This document shows, piece by piece, positions 7,132 through 46,541 of a DNA stretch of 64,000 bases; position 1 is the first letter of the stretch, and each line of letters begins with the position of its first letter. The notes below the pieces were generated by a model. That model searched no databases. It saw only the letters and a program-made list of their open reading frames with translations, and was not told the DNA's origin. The stretch is from an uncultured bacterium (GTDB taxonomy: Bacteria; Patescibacteriota; Minisyncoccia; UBA6257; 2-01-FULL-56-20): contig OY970175.1 of assembly GCA_963707865.1 (NCBI GenBank), forward strand, positions 144,748-208,747, in the 5' to 3' direction. A program made the position numbers and the translations under genes.

Positions 7132-7695
7132 TCAAGCGAGATTTTTTTCCGAATAGGCCTTTCGGTAAACGTCGCGGAGTTTCAACGCCATCACAAAAAG
7201 AATATCGGAATAGGTGAGTGGACTCCCTTGAAATATCGGATACTCAAACGCAAAATTCTGCACCCTTTTGAATTCAGGCCTGTCCCTCGCTTCCATGAGG
7301 ACGTTCAGGCACTGTCGTTCCAATTCAAGGAGCGAGTTAAATTGCTTCTCGCGCAACGCGTTCATGAAATCGGGTTTCAGGGTTTCAAATAGAAGCCCGG
7401 CTCCGCTTTCTTTGAAGAGCTTTTCGCCGAGGGAGTTTACGGTTCTCGGGCTGTCCGTTCCCGAATAACAGGATTGCTTGATAATTTCCCTTTCTAGGAG
7501 AACGTTATTGAGCGTCATGAGGCCCATATTGATTCTGCGAAGCATTCTTTCAATTTTCGGGAAGGCACTATTCGTATGGTTCGTTCTTACCACGAACTTT
7601 GTGACCAAAGCACTTAAAGCGGCAGCCAAAATCACCGCTCCGATGAGCGGATAGTTCTTGTTGATTTCCTCTGCGATAATGACCAAGAATTCCAT
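7132..7695 (-). CDS. Hypothetical protein, N-terminal transmembrane helix
   Basis: 187-aa ORF with a hydrophobic N-terminus and lower GC than its neighbours. Divergent from the E1/GNAT operon across an AT-rich intergenic region. Confidence 0.5.
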   Translation of the reverse strand: MEFLVIIAEEINKNYPLIGAVILAAALSALVTKFVVRTNHTNSAFPKIERMLRRINMGLMTLNNVLLEREIIKQSCYSGTDSPRTVNSLGEKLFKESGAGLLFETLKPDFMNALREKQFNSLLELERQCLNVLMEARDRPEFKRVQNFAFEYPIFQGSPLTYSDILFVMALKLRDVYRKAYSEKNLA

Positions 7696-7905
7696 GCGCG
7701 TTTGTTAGATTTTATTTCTGCGCTGCCCGCGACCATTCCATGTTTTCATTCCCGAGCATTATACTCTTTCTACATTAAATAATTGTTAACTACAAGTTTC
7801 TTTTAATAAAAATTTAATCTTTATTTGGGAGGATTTTAATGGGTGTTGTGCCATTCTCCGAGGAGCACCTTAAATTTCTGGTTTATGTCAAACAAGGAGA
7901 AACGT

Positions 7906-8886
7906 ATGGCAGATCAAACAAACATAATAGATTGTTACGATATTCCGGAGACAACGCACGAAGGGATTGTATATCGGCTCTTGCCAAGGCAATTCAATGA
8001 AAGCCGTTACCGCGAGCGCACGGACCGCAACATCGGATGGATCACGCAGGATGAACAAGATATCATCCGGAACACCGCCATCGCCATCGCGGGCTGCGGC
8101 GGTATGGGTGGCGAGCTCGCGGAAACATTCCTACGCCTCGGTGTGGGCGAGATTCGCATTGCCGACAACGAGTTTTTTGAAACCTCAAACATTAACAGGC
8201 AATTCGGAGCAACTCGGTTTACCGTCGAAAAATCAAAAGCGCTTGAAACGGCGAGGATGATGCGCGCGATTGCTGACGACACCATCGTGGTTGCGTGTCC
8301 CACGGGTATTTCTGAAGGTAACGTTTTCGATTTTCTGCATGGCTGTCACGTGCTCTGCGACGAAATTGAATTTTGGTGCATCGGTTCGCGGATATTGTTG
8401 CACTGCGCCGCACGGGAGCTCGGCATCCCCGTCTTCGTCTGCAGTGCAGTTGGCTTCGGTGCACGACTTTTCCTTTTCATGCCGCGCGGCATGACCGTGG
8501 AGGAATGCCTCGGTTTTGAGTACGAGGAAGCGGTTGATCTTGAGCGAAGGATACGAAGCCGGAATGCGCGGCCGGAAGAAGTAATGCGAGTTATGCGCGC
8601 GGTCGCGCGGAGCTTTTGCTGTGAATGGCCGGAATATTGCGCAGACGATTCGCCGGTAAAAAACCGCGATTTCACAGAAAGGCGGTTGCGTGAAGAGGGG
8701 TGCGGCTCGGTCGTTGCAACCAACCCGCCGTTCGCCTGCGGTTTCGCCGCCAATCGCGTACTGCTCAATCTCATCGCGCATTCCGGAATAAAGCGCGTTG
8801 TTGCGGAAATTCCCGAGATGCCGGGCTACTGCTATTTCGACGCTGCAAAGATGGAAGCAAAGGTTGTAAAAGGGAGGTGGTGGTAA
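7906..8886 (+). CDS. ThiF/MoeB/HesA-family E1-like adenylyltransferase
   Basis: Rossmann dinucleotide loop IAIAGCGGMGGELAETFLRLGVGEIRIADNEFFETSNINRQ, and a C-terminal Cys-rich region (CxxC-like FCCEWPEYC ... GCGS ... FACGF) typical of MoeB/ThiF. AAGGAG lies 6 nt upstream of ATG 7906. An alternative GTG start at 7843 follows GGGAGG. Confidence 0.75.
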   Translation: MADQTNIIDCYDIPETTHEGIVYRLLPRQFNESRYRERTDRNIGWITQDEQDIIRNTAIAIAGCGGMGGELAETFLRLGVGEIRIADNEFFETSNINRQFGATRFTVEKSKALETARMMRAIADDTIVVACPTGISEGNVFDFLHGCHVLCDEIEFWCIGSRILLHCAARELGIPVFVCSAVGFGARLFLFMPRGMTVEECLGFEYEEAVDLERRIRSRNARPEEVMRVMRAVARSFCCEWPEYCADDSPVKNRDFTERRLREEGCGSVVATNPPFACGFAANRVLLNLIAHSGIKRVVAEIPEMPGYCYFDAAKMEAKVVKGRWW

Positions 8887-9468
8887 ATGATTATGATACG
8901 CCGAATGAATGAATATGAAAGAAACGAGGTTGCCTTGTTCGTCCGGCAAGTGATGCGCATACAATATCATTGCGATCCTCACGAATTGCCGGAGATCATG
9001 TTTGTGGGATGGCGCGAGGGCAAATTTGTGGGAGCCATGGCGCTTTCTTTGAGTGCGGGGGAGCCGCTTCCCCTTGAAGAAACGTACGCGCTGGATTACG
9101 GATCGTTCCCTGGTGTATTCAATCGCGCAAGGATCGCGCAATTGGGGCGTTGGGTTGCCACAGTGTCGGACCTTTCCGAGGCACTCGTATATGCCGCAAT
9201 TCAGTACGCTATTCATAAAAACCGCGAATGGGGTATAGGGGAGATCAAACCGCAGGTTGCGCGGCGATTTTCGCGCATGGGCATCCGGATTTTCAGGCTT
9301 TCGGGAGGGCCTCTTCTGGGACATATCCCCGAGAGTGTTCGTCCTTACTATCTTCTGCCTCCTGTTCCTATCCCTGCCGCCATTGCGCTTCTTCCCGCGG
9401 AACGCGTGCTTCGTGAAAGAATGGAAGCGCTCATCGCACAAGGGAAGATTCGTTTTTCTCCGCCATAA
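8887..9468 (+). CDS. GNAT-fold acyltransferase-like protein (uncharacterised), translationally coupled to the E1-like gene
   Basis: NREWGIGEIKPQVARRFSRMGIRIF resembles GNAT motif A (R/Q-x-x-G-x-G/A ... G). ATG 8887 immediately follows the E1 stop at 8884-8886. 193 aa. Confidence 0.5.
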   Translation: MIMIRRMNEYERNEVALFVRQVMRIQYHCDPHELPEIMFVGWREGKFVGAMALSLSAGEPLPLEETYALDYGSFPGVFNRARIAQLGRWVATVSDLSEALVYAAIQYAIHKNREWGIGEIKPQVARRFSRMGIRIFRLSGGPLLGHIPESVRPYYLLPPVPIPAAIALLPAERVLRERMEALIAQGKIRFSPP

Positions 9469-9473
9469 TAATC

Positions 9474-9503
9474 AATCGGCTCCGGCACGCGTCGGAGCCG
9501 ATT
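9474..9503 (+). terminator. Hairpin (11-bp perfect stem AATCGGCTCCG / CGGAGCCGATT) after the E1-GNAT operon, putative intrinsic terminator
   Basis: Perfect stem with an 8-nt loop, followed by a TTTG tract. The U-tract is weak. Confidence 0.4.
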
Positions 9504-9531
9504 TGCCAATCAATTTGGTATCTTTAATACA

Positions 9532-11655
9532 ATGCTTTTGGAACTTATCGCACACATCGTCATAGACGGCCTCAATCTCGGCGTCGGCATATATGTATTC
9601 CTGAAAAATCCGCGGGGGATCATCCATCGTTCGTTCTTCATTTTCACGCTCGGCATCGTAGGATGGAGCGCGAGCATGATGCTCGTTTCTCTCACGGGAC
9701 AATTTTGGCCTGCGATCGCCGCATTCTGGAGCGGCGAGATCGTGGTCCTGGGTTTTGTTTTGCTTGCGGAAGTTTTCCCTGAAAGCAGGCATCTTCGTAA
9801 GCGCTTTTTACTTTGGCTCTTGCCATGGTGCGGGCTGGCATTACTCACACCGTTCGGCGCGTTCATTCGCGACGCGCGGTTCAATGCCGCGGGATATCTG
9901 GAACCGCAGCACGGCCCACTCTTCCCGCTTTTCGGGCTCGTGGTCGGCGCTTACATCTTATGGAGCATCATTACGATGGTCCGGAAGTATCGGCGTCTCC
10001 GCGGCATTCATCGCGTGCAGATGCGCTATTTTGCGGCAGGCGCGTGCACATTCCTTTTCCTCGCGTTCCTTTCCAACGCACTCCTTCCTCTTTTTGGCAT
10101 CGTGGAGTTTAATCTTCTCGGCCCGCTCTTTTCCGTCGTTTTCATTGCGAGCACGGCGTACGCCATCGTGCGGCATCAGTTCATGGATATCCGCATCGTT
10201 GTCCAGCGCGGGCTTCTGTACGCGCTTTCCATTGGCCTCATTGCGTGCATCTTCTTCGGGATAGATTTTGTAGTGAGGACGTTCACGCAAACCAACGGAT
10301 GGGCCGACGACGTCGCGGCAGCCATCGTGGGCGCATTCGGCTTTGTATGGTTCCGGCGTTTCTTTGAGCGCGTGACCGACCCTTTCTTTTTCCGCAACGA
10401 TTACGATTATGCAGCTGCGGTTCGGGAGCTCGGGCTCCTTTTGCATTCAACCATTGACCTTGCGGTTCTCTTGCAATCCCTGGATACGTTTCTTATGCAG
10501 ACGATAAAACCGGAAAGAAGCGTATTTTTATACGATGCCCCCGATAAGCGAAAGATCCGTGCGTTCTTTCACGGAGCCGATGAATCGTTTCTTGAGGGGG
10601 AATACGAAGATGTTTGCGTGAATATTTTTGAGAAAAAAACGGATCAGTTTCTTCTCCAGGAATGGGAAGAGAGATTGGAGAGTGGACAAGGCGTGTCGGA
10701 GGCCGACCACCGCGCGGTGATTGCGTGCGCGGAGAAGCTTAAAATCGGTGCCGCCGTACCGTTTATGGTGCGAGGCAAAGCGGTGGCCGTGATGCTCTTG
10801 GGAAAGAAGCTTTCCGGCGATATCTTCAGATTGAAAGATATTGAGTTTCTTGGGGTTCTTGCCCACCAGGCCGGGATGGCGATAGAAAACGCCCGACTTT
10901 ACGAAGAGGCGCGGCGCTATGGTGAGGAGCTGGAGATGCGCGTCGCGGAGCGCACGGAAGAGGTGCGCGTCATGCAGGAAGCGCAAGCAAAGTTCATCAC
11001 CGACGCGTCGCACGAGCTACAGACCCCGGTTGCCATCCTCAGGGGCAATTTAGAAGTCTTGGAGGGGAAGCGGAAGGGGGACCGCAAGACAGCGTTCGGA
11101 GTGATGTCAAAGACCATTGAACGGATGTCGCGGGCGACCAATAACCTTCTTACCATCGCGAGATTAAATTTTTCTAAAAAGAAACTTCACAAACAGGAAA
11201 TTATAGTGGAAGATCTTTTGGGGGAAGCGTACGACGATTGCATTGTCCTCGCAGAAAATAAAGGAGTACTTCTTTCCTATGCGAGCGATCCCGCGCACGT
11301 TGCGGGCGACAGGGACAAGCTCAAAGAGGTGATCCTGAACTTCGTGAGCAACGCGCTTAAGCACACGCCGCGCGGCGGGCGGATAACGCTCTCGGGAAAA
11401 ACGGACAGCGGCAATATTCTGATCGTTGTTGAAGACACTGGCTCGGGCATCGCGCCGGAGAACCTACCGCATATTTTCGAGCGTTTTTATCGGATCAAAA
11501 CGGACGACGCTTTCGGCACGGGCCTTGGATTAGATATCTGCCGGCAGATTATAGAGGCGCACGGCGGCACCGTCCGTGCAGAGAGCGAACTTTCGAAAGG
11601 CAGCCGCTTCATAGTTTCCCTGCCCGCGCTCCAATCCTCGGGACATGATGCCTAA
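9532..11655 (+). CDS. Sensor histidine kinase with N-terminal 7TM (7TMR-DISM-like) domain, GAF domain, HisKA and HATPase_c
   Basis: About 280 aa of multi-pass membrane region, a GAF-like block (KLKIGAAVPFMVRGKAVAVMLLG...ENARLYEEA), the H-box FITDASHELQTPVAI, and N/G boxes (NALKHTPRGG, EDTGSGIAPE, GTGLGL). No adjacent response regulator. Confidence 0.85.
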   Translation: MLLELIAHIVIDGLNLGVGIYVFLKNPRGIIHRSFFIFTLGIVGWSASMMLVSLTGQFWPAIAAFWSGEIVVLGFVLLAEVFPESRHLRKRFLLWLLPWCGLALLTPFGAFIRDARFNAAGYLEPQHGPLFPLFGLVVGAYILWSIITMVRKYRRLRGIHRVQMRYFAAGACTFLFLAFLSNALLPLFGIVEFNLLGPLFSVVFIASTAYAIVRHQFMDIRIVVQRGLLYALSIGLIACIFFGIDFVVRTFTQTNGWADDVAAAIVGAFGFVWFRRFFERVTDPFFFRNDYDYAAAVRELGLLLHSTIDLAVLLQSLDTFLMQTIKPERSVFLYDAPDKRKIRAFFHGADESFLEGEYEDVCVNIFEKKTDQFLLQEWEERLESGQGVSEADHRAVIACAEKLKIGAAVPFMVRGKAVAVMLLGKKLSGDIFRLKDIEFLGVLAHQAGMAIENARLYEEARRYGEELEMRVAERTEEVRVMQEAQAKFITDASHELQTPVAILRGNLEVLEGKRKGDRKTAFGVMSKTIERMSRATNNLLTIARLNFSKKKLHKQEIIVEDLLGEAYDDCIVLAENKGVLLSYASDPAHVAGDRDKLKEVILNFVSNALKHTPRGGRITLSGKTDSGNILIVVEDTGSGIAPENLPHIFERFYRIKTDDAFGTGLGLDICRQIIEAHGGTVRAESELSKGSRFIVSLPALQSSGHDA

Positions 11656-12503: not shown

Positions 12504-12758
12504 ATGGAGCAAACCTTACTTTCAGTGGGAGAGGCTGCAAAGATTTTGGGAATCAGCCGGATCGCGGTGTTCAAGAAGATAAAATCCGGCAAGATAAAAG
12601 CCGTCAAAACGGGACGCAATTTTGTGATTCAAAGGAATGATCTTGCGGAGGCATTGGGCGAGAGTATCGGGGAAGATAAAAAACGCGAAATAGAGAAGGT
12701 GGTGAATAGGGCCGTGAGGGAATACAAAGAAGTTTTCAGGCGATTGGGCAAGGAATGA
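12504..12758 (+). CDS. Helix-turn-helix DNA-binding protein (excisionase/MerR-type), putative antitoxin
   Basis: LSVGEAAKILGISRIAVFKKIKSGKIKAVKTGRNFVI HTH. The 4-nt overlap (ATGA) with the downstream Doc/Fic gene is typical of a type II toxin-antitoxin pair. Confidence 0.7.
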   Translation: MEQTLLSVGEAAKILGISRIAVFKKIKSGKIKAVKTGRNFVIQRNDLAEALGESIGEDKKREIEKVVNRAVREYKEVFRRLGKE

Positions 12759-13177
12759 GGACACAGCGCATCACCATTAAGGAGGTTGAATATACCGCTC
12801 ATAAATTGGCGAGAAAGTTTATGACATGGGATGAACCGATCCCAGATTTTGGTTCGCGTTTTCCAAACGTGCTTGAGAGTTGCCTCGGCGTTCCATTCCA
12901 GACATTTCGGAAAAAGTCTCTCTACAAAGGCATTGAGGGAAAGAGTGCTATCTTGTTCTATCTGATGGTAAAAAATCACCCTTTTGAAAATGGGAACAAG
13001 CGGATAGCGGTTATGACGCTTCTATTATTTCTATATAGAAATGGGAAATGGCTTAAGGTGAGCAATGAATCGTTATACTTTTTTGCCAAAGACATTGCCG
13101 AAAGCGATCCGAAGCGAAAAGAGCTGGCGATTTTTTCAATACAAGGTTTTATAAGAGAATACATCGTCAATTTCTGA
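12755..13177 (+). CDS. Doc/Fic-family toxin
   Basis: Active-site motif HPFENGNKR, which is Doc-type (HxFx(D/N)(A/G)NKR). 140 aa, in a locally AT-rich segment. Confidence 0.8.
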   Translation: MRTQRITIKEVEYTAHKLARKFMTWDEPIPDFGSRFPNVLESCLGVPFQTFRKKSLYKGIEGKSAILFYLMVKNHPFENGNKRIAVMTLLLFLYRNGKWLKVSNESLYFFAKDIAESDPKRKELAIFSIQGFIREYIVNF

Positions 13178-45094: not shown

Positions 45095-45469
45095 ATGCCG
45101 CAGGGAAAGAAAGTTATGGTGATTGAGGACGACAAATTCTTGTCTTCCTTGATCAAGGCGCGCCTTGAAAAGGACGGTTATACGATCATCCAGGCGTTTG
45201 ACGGCGATGAGGCGATCCAGTCTTTACGGAAAGAAAGGCCAGATCTCATTACTCTTGACCTTGTCATGCCGCGTGTGACCGGGTTTGAGGTACTGCAGGC
45301 GATCGCCATCACGCCGGGACTTGAAAAAATCCCCATCGTGATTCTTTCCAACCTCGCACAAGATTCGGATGTGGAAAAAGCGCGGCAGCTGGGTGCACAG
45401 GAATATTTCGTGAAAGTGAAAATTTCCATTGACGATCTTATCGGAAAAATAGAATCGTTGGCGCATTAA
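45095..45469 (+). CDS. Single-domain response regulator (CheY-like receiver)
   Basis: KVMVIEDDKF...D(54)LVMP...KIPIVILS...K pattern. 124 aa. TATAAT at 45077-45082. Confidence 0.8.
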   Translation: MPQGKKVMVIEDDKFLSSLIKARLEKDGYTIIQAFDGDEAIQSLRKERPDLITLDLVMPRVTGFEVLQAIAITPGLEKIPIVILSNLAQDSDVEKARQLGAQEYFVKVKISIDDLIGKIESLAH

Positions 45470-45470
45470 T

Positions 45471-45773
45471 ATGATTACAGAAGATATTATGAAAAAAATA
45501 AAGTCCGGAGCCAAGGTCCGGGTGTATGAAGGCAAAACCCCTTTTGAGGGGCTTGTGATCGCGCGCAAACACGGCGTGGAGCCGGGAGCGACCTTCACGG
45601 TCCGCACGATCGTTGCCGGAGTGGGCGTGGAGAAAGTTTATCCGCTGCATTCGCCCTCCATACAGAAAATACAGATTGTTTCCGGCCCGAAGAAAGTGCG
45701 GCGTTCCAAATTGTATTTTGTCCGTGGCATCTCCGGCGCGCGCATCCGGGCAAAGCTCGACGTGTCGGTGTGA
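45471..45773 (+). CDS. rplS: 50S ribosomal protein L19
   Basis: FEGLVIARKHG...TFTVRTIVAGVGVEKVYPLHSPSIQKIQIV...VRRSKLYFVRG matches L19 blocks. Confidence 0.9.
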   Translation: MITEDIMKKIKSGAKVRVYEGKTPFEGLVIARKHGVEPGATFTVRTIVAGVGVEKVYPLHSPSIQKIQIVSGPKKVRRSKLYFVRGISGARIRAKLDVSV

Positions 45774-45884: not shown

Positions 45885-46541
45885 GTGAAACCACTCAGGA
45901 AGGTCAATGTCAGATGGTCGCCCGAATTCGCATATGCGATCGGGCTTTTGGTGACCGACGGGTGTTTATATTCTGACGGAAGGCATATCAACCTCACCTC
46001 AAAAGACGAGGAGCAGGTGAAGAATTTCATGAAATGTCTTGCCTTGGATAACAAAATCGGCAAGAAAAGCAGGGGAGGAGAATTGGAAAAGAAATATTTT
46101 GTAGTGCAGTTTGGAGACGTGTTATTTTATAAATTTCTTGGCTCTATTGGTGTCACTTCTCATAAATCAAAAACTTTAGGAGCAATCAAGGTACCGGATG
46201 AATTTTTTTTTGATTTTCTCAGGGGGCATTTTGACGGCGACGGAACTTTTTATTCCTATTGGGATCCGCGTTGGCGTTCGAGTTACATGTTTTACACTGT
46301 TTTTCTTTCAGCAAGCGGTTCTCATATTGCGTGGATCAGAACTGCGATTTTCAAAAAATTACATCTCAAGGGTTATATGACGGTAACAGGTAAAACTCCC
46401 ATGTATGAGGTAAAATATGCCAAGGCTGAATCATTGAAATTATTGCCGAAATTGTATTATAATGCCGATGTGGTTTGTTTGTCCCGCAAGCGAGAAAGGA
46501 TCGAGAAAGCACTTGCGATAGCGAACAAAACCTTGACATGA
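45885..46541 (+). CDS. LAGLIDADG-family homing endonuclease (two-motif, monomeric type), AT-rich
   Basis: Motif 1 YAIGLLVTDGCL and motif 2 LRGHFDGDGTF, spaced ~100 aa apart. GTG start. Lower GC than the flanks. Confidence 0.85.
   Translation: MKPLRKVNVRWSPEFAYAIGLLVTDGCLYSDGRHINLTSKDEEQVKNFMKCLALDNKIGKKSRGGELEKKYFVVQFGDVLFYKFLGSIGVTSHKSKTLGAIKVPDEFFFDFLRGHFDGDGTFYSYWDPRWRSSYMFYTVFLSASGSHIAWIRTAIFKKLHLKGYMTVTGKTPMYEVKYAKAESLKLLPKLYYNADVVCLSRKRERIEKALAIANKTLT

Follow-up and report, generated by a model that had tools for sequence, protein, structure and literature searches.

A conserved ThiF-like/N-acyl amino acid synthase-like gene pair beside a membrane histidine kinase in Patescibacteria: a candidate pathway for oxazolone-type lipids

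What might an adenylating enzyme of the ThiF/E1 type and a GNAT-type acyltransferase make together when their genes lie in tandem in the 0.9-Mb genome of an uncultured patescibacterium? The question is raised by a stretch of 64,000 nucleotides from contig OY970175.1 (assembly GCA_963707865.1, positions 144,748 to 208,747 of the forward strand), which we refer to throughout as the window. Near its 5' end, an initial annotation had described a module of four parts, an AT-rich region, a stand-alone E1-like gene, a GNAT open reading frame (ORF) and a hairpin, had left its substrate unassigned, and had likened it to microcin C biosynthesis. We found all four parts where they had been placed, and the enzyme classes assigned to the two proteins stand, but the analogy and the proposed boundary do not. 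A much better fit is the precedent of a synthase of N-acyl amino acids (NAS) acting with a ThiF-like cyclase, known from the OxzAB, TyzACB and TrzAS systems. The best explanation for the evidence set out below is that the two genes, here called E1 and NAS, form a small-molecule lipid pathway rather than a system for tagging proteins or peptides. Most likely, they are an oxazolone-type NAS/ThiF pair, but one that is free of an oxidase and wired to a two-component system.

The E1 protein matches the Pfam ThiF family (PF00899) with 92.8 bits (2.4e-26; gathering cut-off 28.1), and its AlphaFold2 model (predicted local distance difference test score, pLDDT, 90.7) has an E1 fold with a Rossmann-like core, with ThiF, SUMO E1, PaaA and MoeB as the top Foldseek matches. 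It is therefore the stand-alone E1-like adenylating enzyme that had been predicted. Its best NCBIfam matches are PRK08223 (146.5 bits), PRK14851 (100 bits; cut-off 1170) and PRK14852 (75 bits), followed by ThiF (60) and MoeB (22-51), whose equivalogs have cut-offs of 266-449, the Rv1355c family (55 bits; cut-off 476) and TcdA (34). In an alignment of 27 orthologues, G65, G66 and G68 of a GCGGMGG loop, R98-Q99 of an NRQ motif, K111 and D152 are invariant, with G63, C64 and M67 of the loop nearly so. By analogy with ThiF and MoeB, we take the Gly-rich loop, the Arg/Gln pair, the Lys and the Mg-binding Asp to serve in adenylation. The same alignment contains no conserved CxxC pairs (zinc) and no conserved catalytic or crossover-loop Cys. 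We also built a neighbor-joining tree, which is indicative only, as it has no bootstrap, its loci were picked by similarity, and it does not include authentic OxzB, TyzB or TrzS sequences. In this tree the window clade, a small intermediate clade and a clade of PRK08223 proteins and fusions group together, with E. coli ThiF, MoeB and TcdA outside; the window clade is the sister of OxzB-like proteins and is not nested inside the curated families. The E1 thus clusters with ThiF proteins that adjoin TIGR03694 NAS genes and nitroreductase-type oxidases. One of the nearest E1 relatives of solved structure is a 265-aa ThiF-type protein in PDB entries 9egb/9egc ('AclA from Tenacibaculum discolor in complex with substrate', 2025; 57 bits, Foldseek rank 4). 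We found no paper on AclA, which may be another small-molecule ThiF.

The second protein is predicted with confidence to have a GNAT fold (pLDDT 94.6). Its ten best Foldseek matches in the PDB, at template modeling scores of ~0.6-0.65, are all N-acyl-homoserine lactone (AHL) synthases, the named ones being BjaI, MesI, LasI, TofI, EsaI and RpaI; generic GNATs come after these, and FeeM lies outside the top 50. This bears out the earlier call of a co-operonic GNAT-type acyltransferase of the FeeM/autoinducer-synthase type. No NCBIfam model matches the protein, TIGR03694 included, and Pfam Autoind_synth (PF00765) gives no match even at E <= 1. When we compared profiles with hhalign, the window NAS family aligned to TIGR03694-type NAS over 143 columns (95.9% probability, E 5e-9), which supports homology between the two. 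In this profile alignment, window-type proteins lack a 14-residue acidic segment, 'E.D.FD..S', that TIGR03694 and LuxI-type proteins keep, and they have QLGR (Q-x-G-R) where TIGR03694 and LuxI-like proteins have EISR. The missing segment presumably lines the S-adenosylmethionine (SAM) site of LuxI-type enzymes. Word-index homology searches returned just 9 and 19 proteins, and the family was sized by searching all 1.84 billion representatives exhaustively with a profile, which gave 451 relatives as clusters at 50% identity (79 at E <= 1e-30), nearly all of 180-215 aa or fused to an E1. The NAS family is small, specific and patchy. One member from the representatives search (P0168, 463 aa) joins a NAS of the window family to a C-terminal SAM-dependent methyltransferase (Methyltransf_11, 75 bits), a fusion that suggests alternative tailoring of the same product.

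Scanning one genome per species yielded 80 loci, among them 52 E1 orthologues; the window is the 53rd in our counts. The orthologous loci represent ~50 species, most of them Patescibacteria (Paceibacteria/Minisyncoccia, Nomura-, Taylor-, Adler-, Azam- and Doudnabacteria), with outliers in Legionella norrlandica, a gammaproteobacterial metagenome-assembled genome (MAG), Thermoanaerobaculia and an alphaproteobacterium. A hidden Markov model (HMM) grown from the window NAS recognized a homologous gene of ~190 aa directly 3' of E1 in 42 of the 48 loci with enough flank, and two of the 48 are E1-NAS fusions. Three further loci have an ORF of ~210 aa in the NAS slot, which in L033 is the same homologue lying outside the position filter and in L018 and L035 goes unrecognized by the profile. 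The pairing of E1 with NAS is far beyond chance. In most loci the two genes overlap by 4 or 10 nt, as expected of translational coupling, and many NAS proteins start with MVV because, in the 10-nt overlap, the codons for the terminal Trp-Trp of E1 hold the next start (ATGGTGGTGA). Natural fusions of ~500-526 aa keep the order E1 then NAS. The fusions P0035, P0060 and P0080 carry a LuxI/Acetyltransf_5-like domain instead, which in P0080 passes the Pfam Autoind_synth cut-off (29.1 bits vs 24), so that two NAS subtypes serve the E1 clade.

Contexts outside Patescibacteria look like small-molecule clusters. In cultured L. norrlandica (L031:5215-10197), the genes around the pair encode a heme-oxygenase-like iron enzyme (PF14518), a cupin, an alpha/beta hydrolase and an MFS transporter together with a MarR regulator, which makes a compact, orphan biosynthetic gene cluster in an organism amenable to experiment. 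In the alphaproteobacterial MAG (L016:5980-12948), the E1 orthologue is followed by a large polyketide synthase of >1900 aa (KS-AT-DH and more), with no NAS.

The conserved unit does not end with the pair. A homologous kinase gene lies 3' of it in 42 of 48 orthologous loci (median gap 52 nt), and in 31 of 47 a co-directional gene 5' of E1 encodes an OmpR-type response regulator (median gap 124 nt), so that the order conserved in Patescibacteria is regulator, E1, NAS and a kinase with a seven-transmembrane (7TM) and a GAF domain. All four genes are present in, for example, L003 and L019. Comparing gene neighborhoods across Patescibacteria, as the initial annotation had advised, thus confirmed the pair and showed that its boundary of 7696-9510 was too short, leaving out the 3' kinase and, in most relatives, the 5' regulator. 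Several features of these surroundings vary. The slot where most relatives carry the regulator holds, in the window, a 187-aa ORF on the - strand (7132-7695) that has an N-terminal hydrophobic helix and no Pfam, NCBIfam or PADLOC match. A second, divergent kinase/regulator pair of the same families flanks the cassette in L015, L028, L030 and L032, which would fit extra receptors without a synthase of their own. In 12 orthologous loci (L011:4707-5147, L019:4640-5086, L040:4707-5147 and nine more) the cassette regulator adjoins, in either orientation, a gene for a Cys/His-rich protein of ~150 aa with no Pfam match and the motifs IIFAGKKSSGALEIIELAC, LCDHD and DGH.PC.E.P.L.G; this protein may be a fifth component of the cassette.

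These data bear directly on the analogy with microcin C, in which the E1 would adenylate a ribosomal peptide and the GNAT protein would acetylate the toxic product for immunity. Its variants cast the E1 as the activating enzyme of a ubiquitin-like protein (Ubl) or sulfur carrier, or as a TcdA-like tRNA dehydratase that merely sits beside a GNAT gene. MccB, PaaA, ThiF, MoeB and TcdA do share the E1 fold, and the window protein has its adenylation chemistry in common with TcdA, E. coli ThiF and MoeB. TcdA, the tRNA ct6A dehydratase, is moreover the closest solved relative in sequence (61 bits), and it cyclizes via an acyl-adenylate without a protein substrate. However, the match to MccB (38 bits) is confined to the nucleotide-binding stretch at residues 52-118, and the N-terminus of the E1 model is only a short beta-hairpin, with no peptide clamp. 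As the initial annotation had stated, no Ubl, E2 or precursor peptide is adjacent: no + strand ORF ending in Asn adjoins E1, the four ORFs of the window that end in Gly-Gly are all distant from the pair, and neither an E2 nor a JAB protein is encoded beside it. Nor does the conserved neighborhood include an E2, JAB, rhodanese, peptidase or exporter. A Ubl or sulfur-carrier E1 is further disfavored by the lack of a conserved catalytic Cys and of a CxxC zinc motif, and TcdA, MoeB and ThiF by scores that are 5- to 10-fold under their equivalog cut-offs, by their place as the outgroup of the tree and by their different partners, the window E1 being strictly partnered with NAS. The GNAT protein, for its part, is of the AHL-synthase/NAS type and not a small-molecule acetyltransferase. 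The initial annotation was to fall if that protein had no GNAT fold and the E1 grouped firmly with TcdA or MoeB; the fold is confident, and the E1 groups with neither, whether by score (33.9 bits against a TcdA cut-off of 304) or in the tree. PADLOC returned only weak E1-E2 matches, limited to ~60-160 residues of E1 in and about its nucleotide-binding part, and the other three proteins drew none; on this basis we rejected a role in anti-phage defense. We conclude that the microcin C, Ubl and TcdA readings are largely refuted; that any of them is right is extremely unlikely.

The structural matches of the NAS raise a different possibility, that it is a true LuxI-type, SAM-using AHL synthase, the cassette an AHL quorum-sensing system and the E1 unrelated or accessory. 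All the top Foldseek matches are AHL synthases, and E1-fused domains of some relatives, as in P0080, pass the Autoind_synth cut-off. Furthermore, Bernard et al. 2020 (PMC7567580) described 36 "LuxI homologs" in the candidate phyla radiation (CPR), 18 of them beside a "putative sensory kinase", and proposed AHL quorum sensing. Table S4 of that study includes Nomurabacteria RIFCSPLOWO2_01_FULL_42_20, the genome of our locus L030, and the genetic system described there is the same as ours. Their AHL reading came from a weak LuxI-HMM match and differs from ours in leaving the ThiF gene unmentioned; 'ThiF' does not occur in the main text or the available supplementary text (PMC7567580). The nearest structures of TyzA, an NAS of Mycobacterium tuberculosis that does not make AHLs, are likewise AHL synthases (PMC10404671), so this resemblance is shared by non-AHL enzymes. 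The window protein, in turn, has no Autoind_synth match, lacks the acidic segment and reads QLGR in place of EISR. Because these LuxI hallmarks are missing, and because the AHL reading does not account for an obligatory and often fused E1 partner, the protein is unlikely to be a canonical AHL synthase.

By contrast with AHL synthesis, the oxazolone pathways account for both enzymes. In Pseudoalteromonas rubra and other Proteobacteria, OxzA produces N-acyl-Tyr/Phe from acyl-CoA, and the ThiF-nitroreductase OxzB, with ATP, converts these to oxazolones (tyrazolones) (bioRxiv 10.1101/2020.06.11.147165; de Rond, Asay, Moore). The same conversion is carried out in M. tuberculosis by TyzA together with TyzB, a stand-alone ThiF, and TyzC, an oxidase (PMC10404671). 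In TrzS, the ThiF step has to come first, cyclization requires the adenylation Asp and is abolished by its loss, and a saturated cyclized intermediate is obtained from the oxidase-dead R540A variant and from the wild type at limiting O2 (PMC12856293). The characterized relatives act on Tyr, Phe or Trp (bioRxiv 10.1101/2020.06.11.147165, PMC10404671, PMC12856293). The oxazolone papers include some ThiF nodes that neighbor an acyltransferase only; kinases and Patescibacteria are not discussed there, and we found no paper linking the oxazolone pathway with the adjacency of LuxI homologs and kinases in CPR.

How closely does the window pair resemble these systems? The best curated matches of its E1, PRK08223 and PRK14851, are the families of OxzB-type proteins, and its NAS belongs to a family homologous to that of OxzA. 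The window NAS HMM also detects an acyltransferase in distant proteobacterial loci, where the protein is classed as a TIGR03694 "PEP-CTERM/exosortase system-associated acyltransferase" (218-255 bits) and its gene lies just 5' of a true PRK08223 ThiF (421 bits) or a PRK14851-type ThiF-nitroreductase fusion. The window differs from OxzA/OxzB in its reversed gene order (E1 then NAS, where known systems have NAS then E1), in having no nitroreductase-type oxidase domain or gene, in a NAS without the acidic N-terminal segment, in an E1 that scores under the family cut-offs and falls in a separate clade, and in its genetic linkage, which is with a two-component system and not with PEP-CTERM/exosortase genes. 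Among the M. tuberculosis proteins, TyzB is, like the window E1, a stand-alone ThiF-like cyclase and of similar size (~318 aa), and TrzS acts first through its ThiF step, giving the saturated cyclized intermediate, the reaction proposed for the window E1. The catalytic Asp is kept as well, D152 being the counterpart of the essential residue of TrzS (PMC12856293). However, TyzA/B/C and TrzA/TrzS both include a flavin-dependent oxidase, their clusters have no kinase linkage, and the window E1 reaches just 55 bits with the Rv1355c family model.

We looked for the oxidase with an HMM built from six ThiF-oxidase fusions. It found the flavin oxidase in 16 proteobacterial loci, but in none of the 52 orthologous loci and in no ORF of the window, and clustering of all neighboring ORFs revealed no other conserved enzyme able to substitute for it. 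We propose the following route, the first two steps of which are based on homology. The 193-aa GNAT-fold enzyme would transfer a fatty acyl group from acyl-CoA or acyl carrier protein to the alpha-amino group of an amino acid, producing an N-acyl amino acid. The ThiF-like enzyme would then adenylate the free carboxylate at the expense of ATP, and the amide oxygen would attack the acyl-adenylate to close a 5(4H)-oxazolone (azlactone) ring. This ring closure is the reaction assigned to the ThiF-like domains or proteins of OxzB, TyzB and TrzS (bioRxiv 10.1101/2020.06.11.147165, PMC10404671, PMC12856293). Since a flavin oxidase partner is missing from this clade, the expected product is a saturated oxazolone, like that from oxidase-disabled TrzS, or a derivative of the reactive ring. 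Judging from the sequences, we think it likely that the pair performs chemistry of this class, in which an N-acyl amino acid is made and then cyclized or activated via an acyl-adenylate.

A variant of this scheme ends in another ring. Here the NAS would make an N-acyl-homoserine or another hydroxy- or thiol-amino acid whose side chain captures the E1 adenylate, so that a lactone or thiolactone forms in an ATP-dependent, SAM-independent manner. E1-type cyclization via an acyl-adenylate is established for OxzB, TyzB and TrzS, and TcdA is also a cyclodehydratase; both the kinase linkage and the resemblance to AHL synthases would be compatible with such a product. Yet the idea is conjecture throughout, the route has no precedent, and the use of Tyr, Phe and Trp by the characterized relatives speaks against it. 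We consider it very unlikely.

What might the oxazolone-type product be for? In Patescibacteria, the gene context suggests that the lipophilic product could be read by the downstream 7TM histidine kinase. The kinase would then signal to the OmpR-type regulator that is adjacent in most relatives, though not in the window, and the whole would amount to an autoinducer-type synthase/receptor cassette. In LuxM/LuxN, CqsA/CqsS and LqsA/LqsS, a synthase gene stands beside that of a polytopic membrane histidine kinase, which senses a lipophilic ligand in its membrane domain. In the window, candidate synthase genes likewise adjoin that of a membrane kinase, but the enzyme families and the sensor domain (HisKA_7TM + GAF) are unrelated to theirs, and the ligand-receptor relation is putative. 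The adjacency in CPR had also been singled out independently as a candidate pair for quorum sensing (PMC7567580). Given a gene order in which the regulator and kinase genes enclose the biosynthetic ones, and a sensor embedded in the membrane, as suits lipophilic ligands, we put a signaling role for the cassette slightly below an even prospect. For the combined proposal, in which an N-acyl amino acid made by the pair is cyclized to a saturated oxazolone-type lipid and sensed by the adjacent kinase, we see the balance as even. The wider idea, that Patescibacteria (CPR) possess a previously unrecognized quorum-sensing-like circuit in which an oxidase-free azlactone lipid, or a derivative, is made by a fused or coupled ThiF cyclase and NAS and sensed by a dedicated 7TM-GAF kinase and OmpR regulator, is tentative, and the odds are against it at present.

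The main rival keeps the chemistry and changes the role. The product would be a lipid of the membrane or envelope, an N-acyl amino acid aminolipid or the cyclized form of one, and the two-component system would only regulate envelope remodeling upon a different stimulus, much as in operons that combine the gene of a lipid-modifying enzyme with those of a kinase and regulator controlling it. Both readings draw on identical evidence for the chemistry, and the lineages outside Patescibacteria keep the pair without the kinase, so there the role of the product is independent of this receptor. To our knowledge, Patescibacteria generally lack fatty-acid and lipid synthesis, and tailoring of scavenged lipids is therefore plausible. 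However, the nesting of the enzymes between regulator and kinase, together with a membrane-embedded 7TM sensor, is the typical layout of a synthase and its receptor and fits lipophilic ligands. In addition, the NAS family, with ~450 clusters (50% identity; 1.84 billion representatives searched), is small and patchy, which is more in keeping with an accessory signal or metabolite than with a core membrane lipid. On balance, we regard the envelope-lipid role as rather improbable.

Several observations weigh against the proposal that the pair makes an oxazolone-type signal. The E1 scores under the cut-off of every NCBIfam model (146.5 bits vs 266 for PRK08223), and the Pfam scores of the NAS, 25.4 bits for T_hemolysin and 22.1 for FeeM (PF21926), are both below the cut-off of 27. 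Two loci, L041:1752-4725 and L042:5449-8337, lack a NAS gene between E1 and the 7TM kinase gene, which comes next after gaps of 151 and 21 nt, respectively. Orthologues outside Patescibacteria come without the kinase, accounting for five of the six kinase-less loci. The adjacent regulator is missing from the window and from its nearest relatives L001, L004 and L012; no DNA-binding response regulator adjoins the cassette in the window, where the sole receiver is encoded 35 kb away and is a single-domain protein of 124 aa (45095-45469; 85 bits vs the cassette regulator profile). More generally, enzyme genes in two-component operons can be regulated targets rather than signal synthases, and a saturated azlactone is hydrolytically labile, an awkward property for a diffusible signal. 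Oxazolones are hydrolyzed by acid (PMC12856293). Finally, the oxidase could be encoded elsewhere in the genome.

The coordinates of the features in and around the pair are collected in Table 1.

Table 1. Features of the E1-NAS locus (positions in the window).
Feature	Position	Strand	Description
Leader/promoter region	7696-7905	+	AT-rich, 210 nt; 3' part ~7757-7905 conserved, part further upstream not
Small ORF	7839-8000	+	53 aa, GGGAGG Shine-Dalgarno sequence, out-of-frame overlap with E1 start; doubtful gene
E1 gene	7906-8886	+	ATG to TAA, 326 aa; ThiF/E1-fold adenylating enzyme; predicted ATP-dependent N-acyl amino acid cyclase
NAS-like gene	8887-9468	+	193 aa; GNAT-fold N-acyl amino acid synthase-like acyltransferase, translationally coupled to E1
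Hairpin	9474-9503	+	11 perfect pairs, 8-nt loop; within 63-nt NAS-kinase gap
Histidine kinase gene	9532-11655	+	707 aa; HisKA_7TM, GAF, HisKA, HATPase_c (Pfam); conserved third cassette gene, proposed receptor

The ATG chosen as the start of E1 has an AAGGAG 7 nt 5' of it; in-frame alternatives exist at GTG 7843 and ATG 7885, and the public gene call for an identical protein uses the same start as ours. The public call agrees for the kinase gene as well. As first described, the NAS gene begins on the base directly after the E1 stop, and its Shine-Dalgarno sequence, GGGAGG, sits within the last E1 codons (Gly-Arg of the tail ...KGRWW-stop).

The leader has a GC content of 35.7%, compared with 53% for the window. 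Its last ~150 nt before the E1 start are ~93% identical to those of L001, the closest relative, whose proteins are only 87% identical, while the sequence further upstream is unrelated. Operator, structured leader and upstream ORF are all possible roles for this stretch. It includes AT-rich inverted repeats, among them 7774-7789/7803-7818; we found no direct repeats for regulator binding and, on the + strand, no match to the sigma-70 consensus at the scan threshold. Neither leader nor hairpin has an Rfam match at E <= 1, and we rejected a riboswitch or other known RNA on this basis. The small ORF overlapping the E1 start exists as had been described, with its GGGAGG ribosome-binding site, and the GGGAGG-ATG is conserved in L001. 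However, the substitutions relative to L001 are, in our reading, mostly non-synonymous, the ORF has no Pfam match, and it is absent from the public gene call, so that its status as a real gene is unsupported. The hairpin is also kept in L001, with two changes that both fall in the loop. A role as a terminator is unconvincing, because it has no T-tract on the + strand and hence is not a canonical terminator for the operon.

Elsewhere in the window, two overlapping small ORFs of 84 and 140 aa just 3' of RadC (12504-13177) look like a toxin-antitoxin-type pair. The lone receiver is followed by a 100-aa ORF (45471-45773) and, further on, a 218-aa ORF (45885-46541) in which we read two LAGLIDADG-like motifs by eye (...LLVTDGC... 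and ...HFDGDGT...); the latter is possibly a homing endonuclease.

Oxazolone lipids were discovered only in 2020-2025, and their physiological role has been called a major unresolved question (PMC12856293). Finding two-enzyme oxazolone chemistry tied to a sensor kinase and a regulator leads to a concrete and testable hypothesis, that oxazolone lipids are signals. Existing annotation is corrected in one respect, as the CPR "LuxI homologs" proposed to be AHL synthases always come with a ThiF-like partner and without LuxI hallmarks. The oxidase-free version of the pathway would be a natural source of saturated azlactones, and azlactones have been described by the authors of the OxzB study as versatile synthetic intermediates (bioRxiv 10.1101/2020.06.11.147165). 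If the hypothesis is true, signaling would be the first function assigned to oxazolone lipids, and these ultra-small episymbionts would have a private chemical language. A three- or four-gene cassette conserved in ~50 species of minimal-genome, host-dependent Patescibacteria points to communication as a function that such genomes retain.

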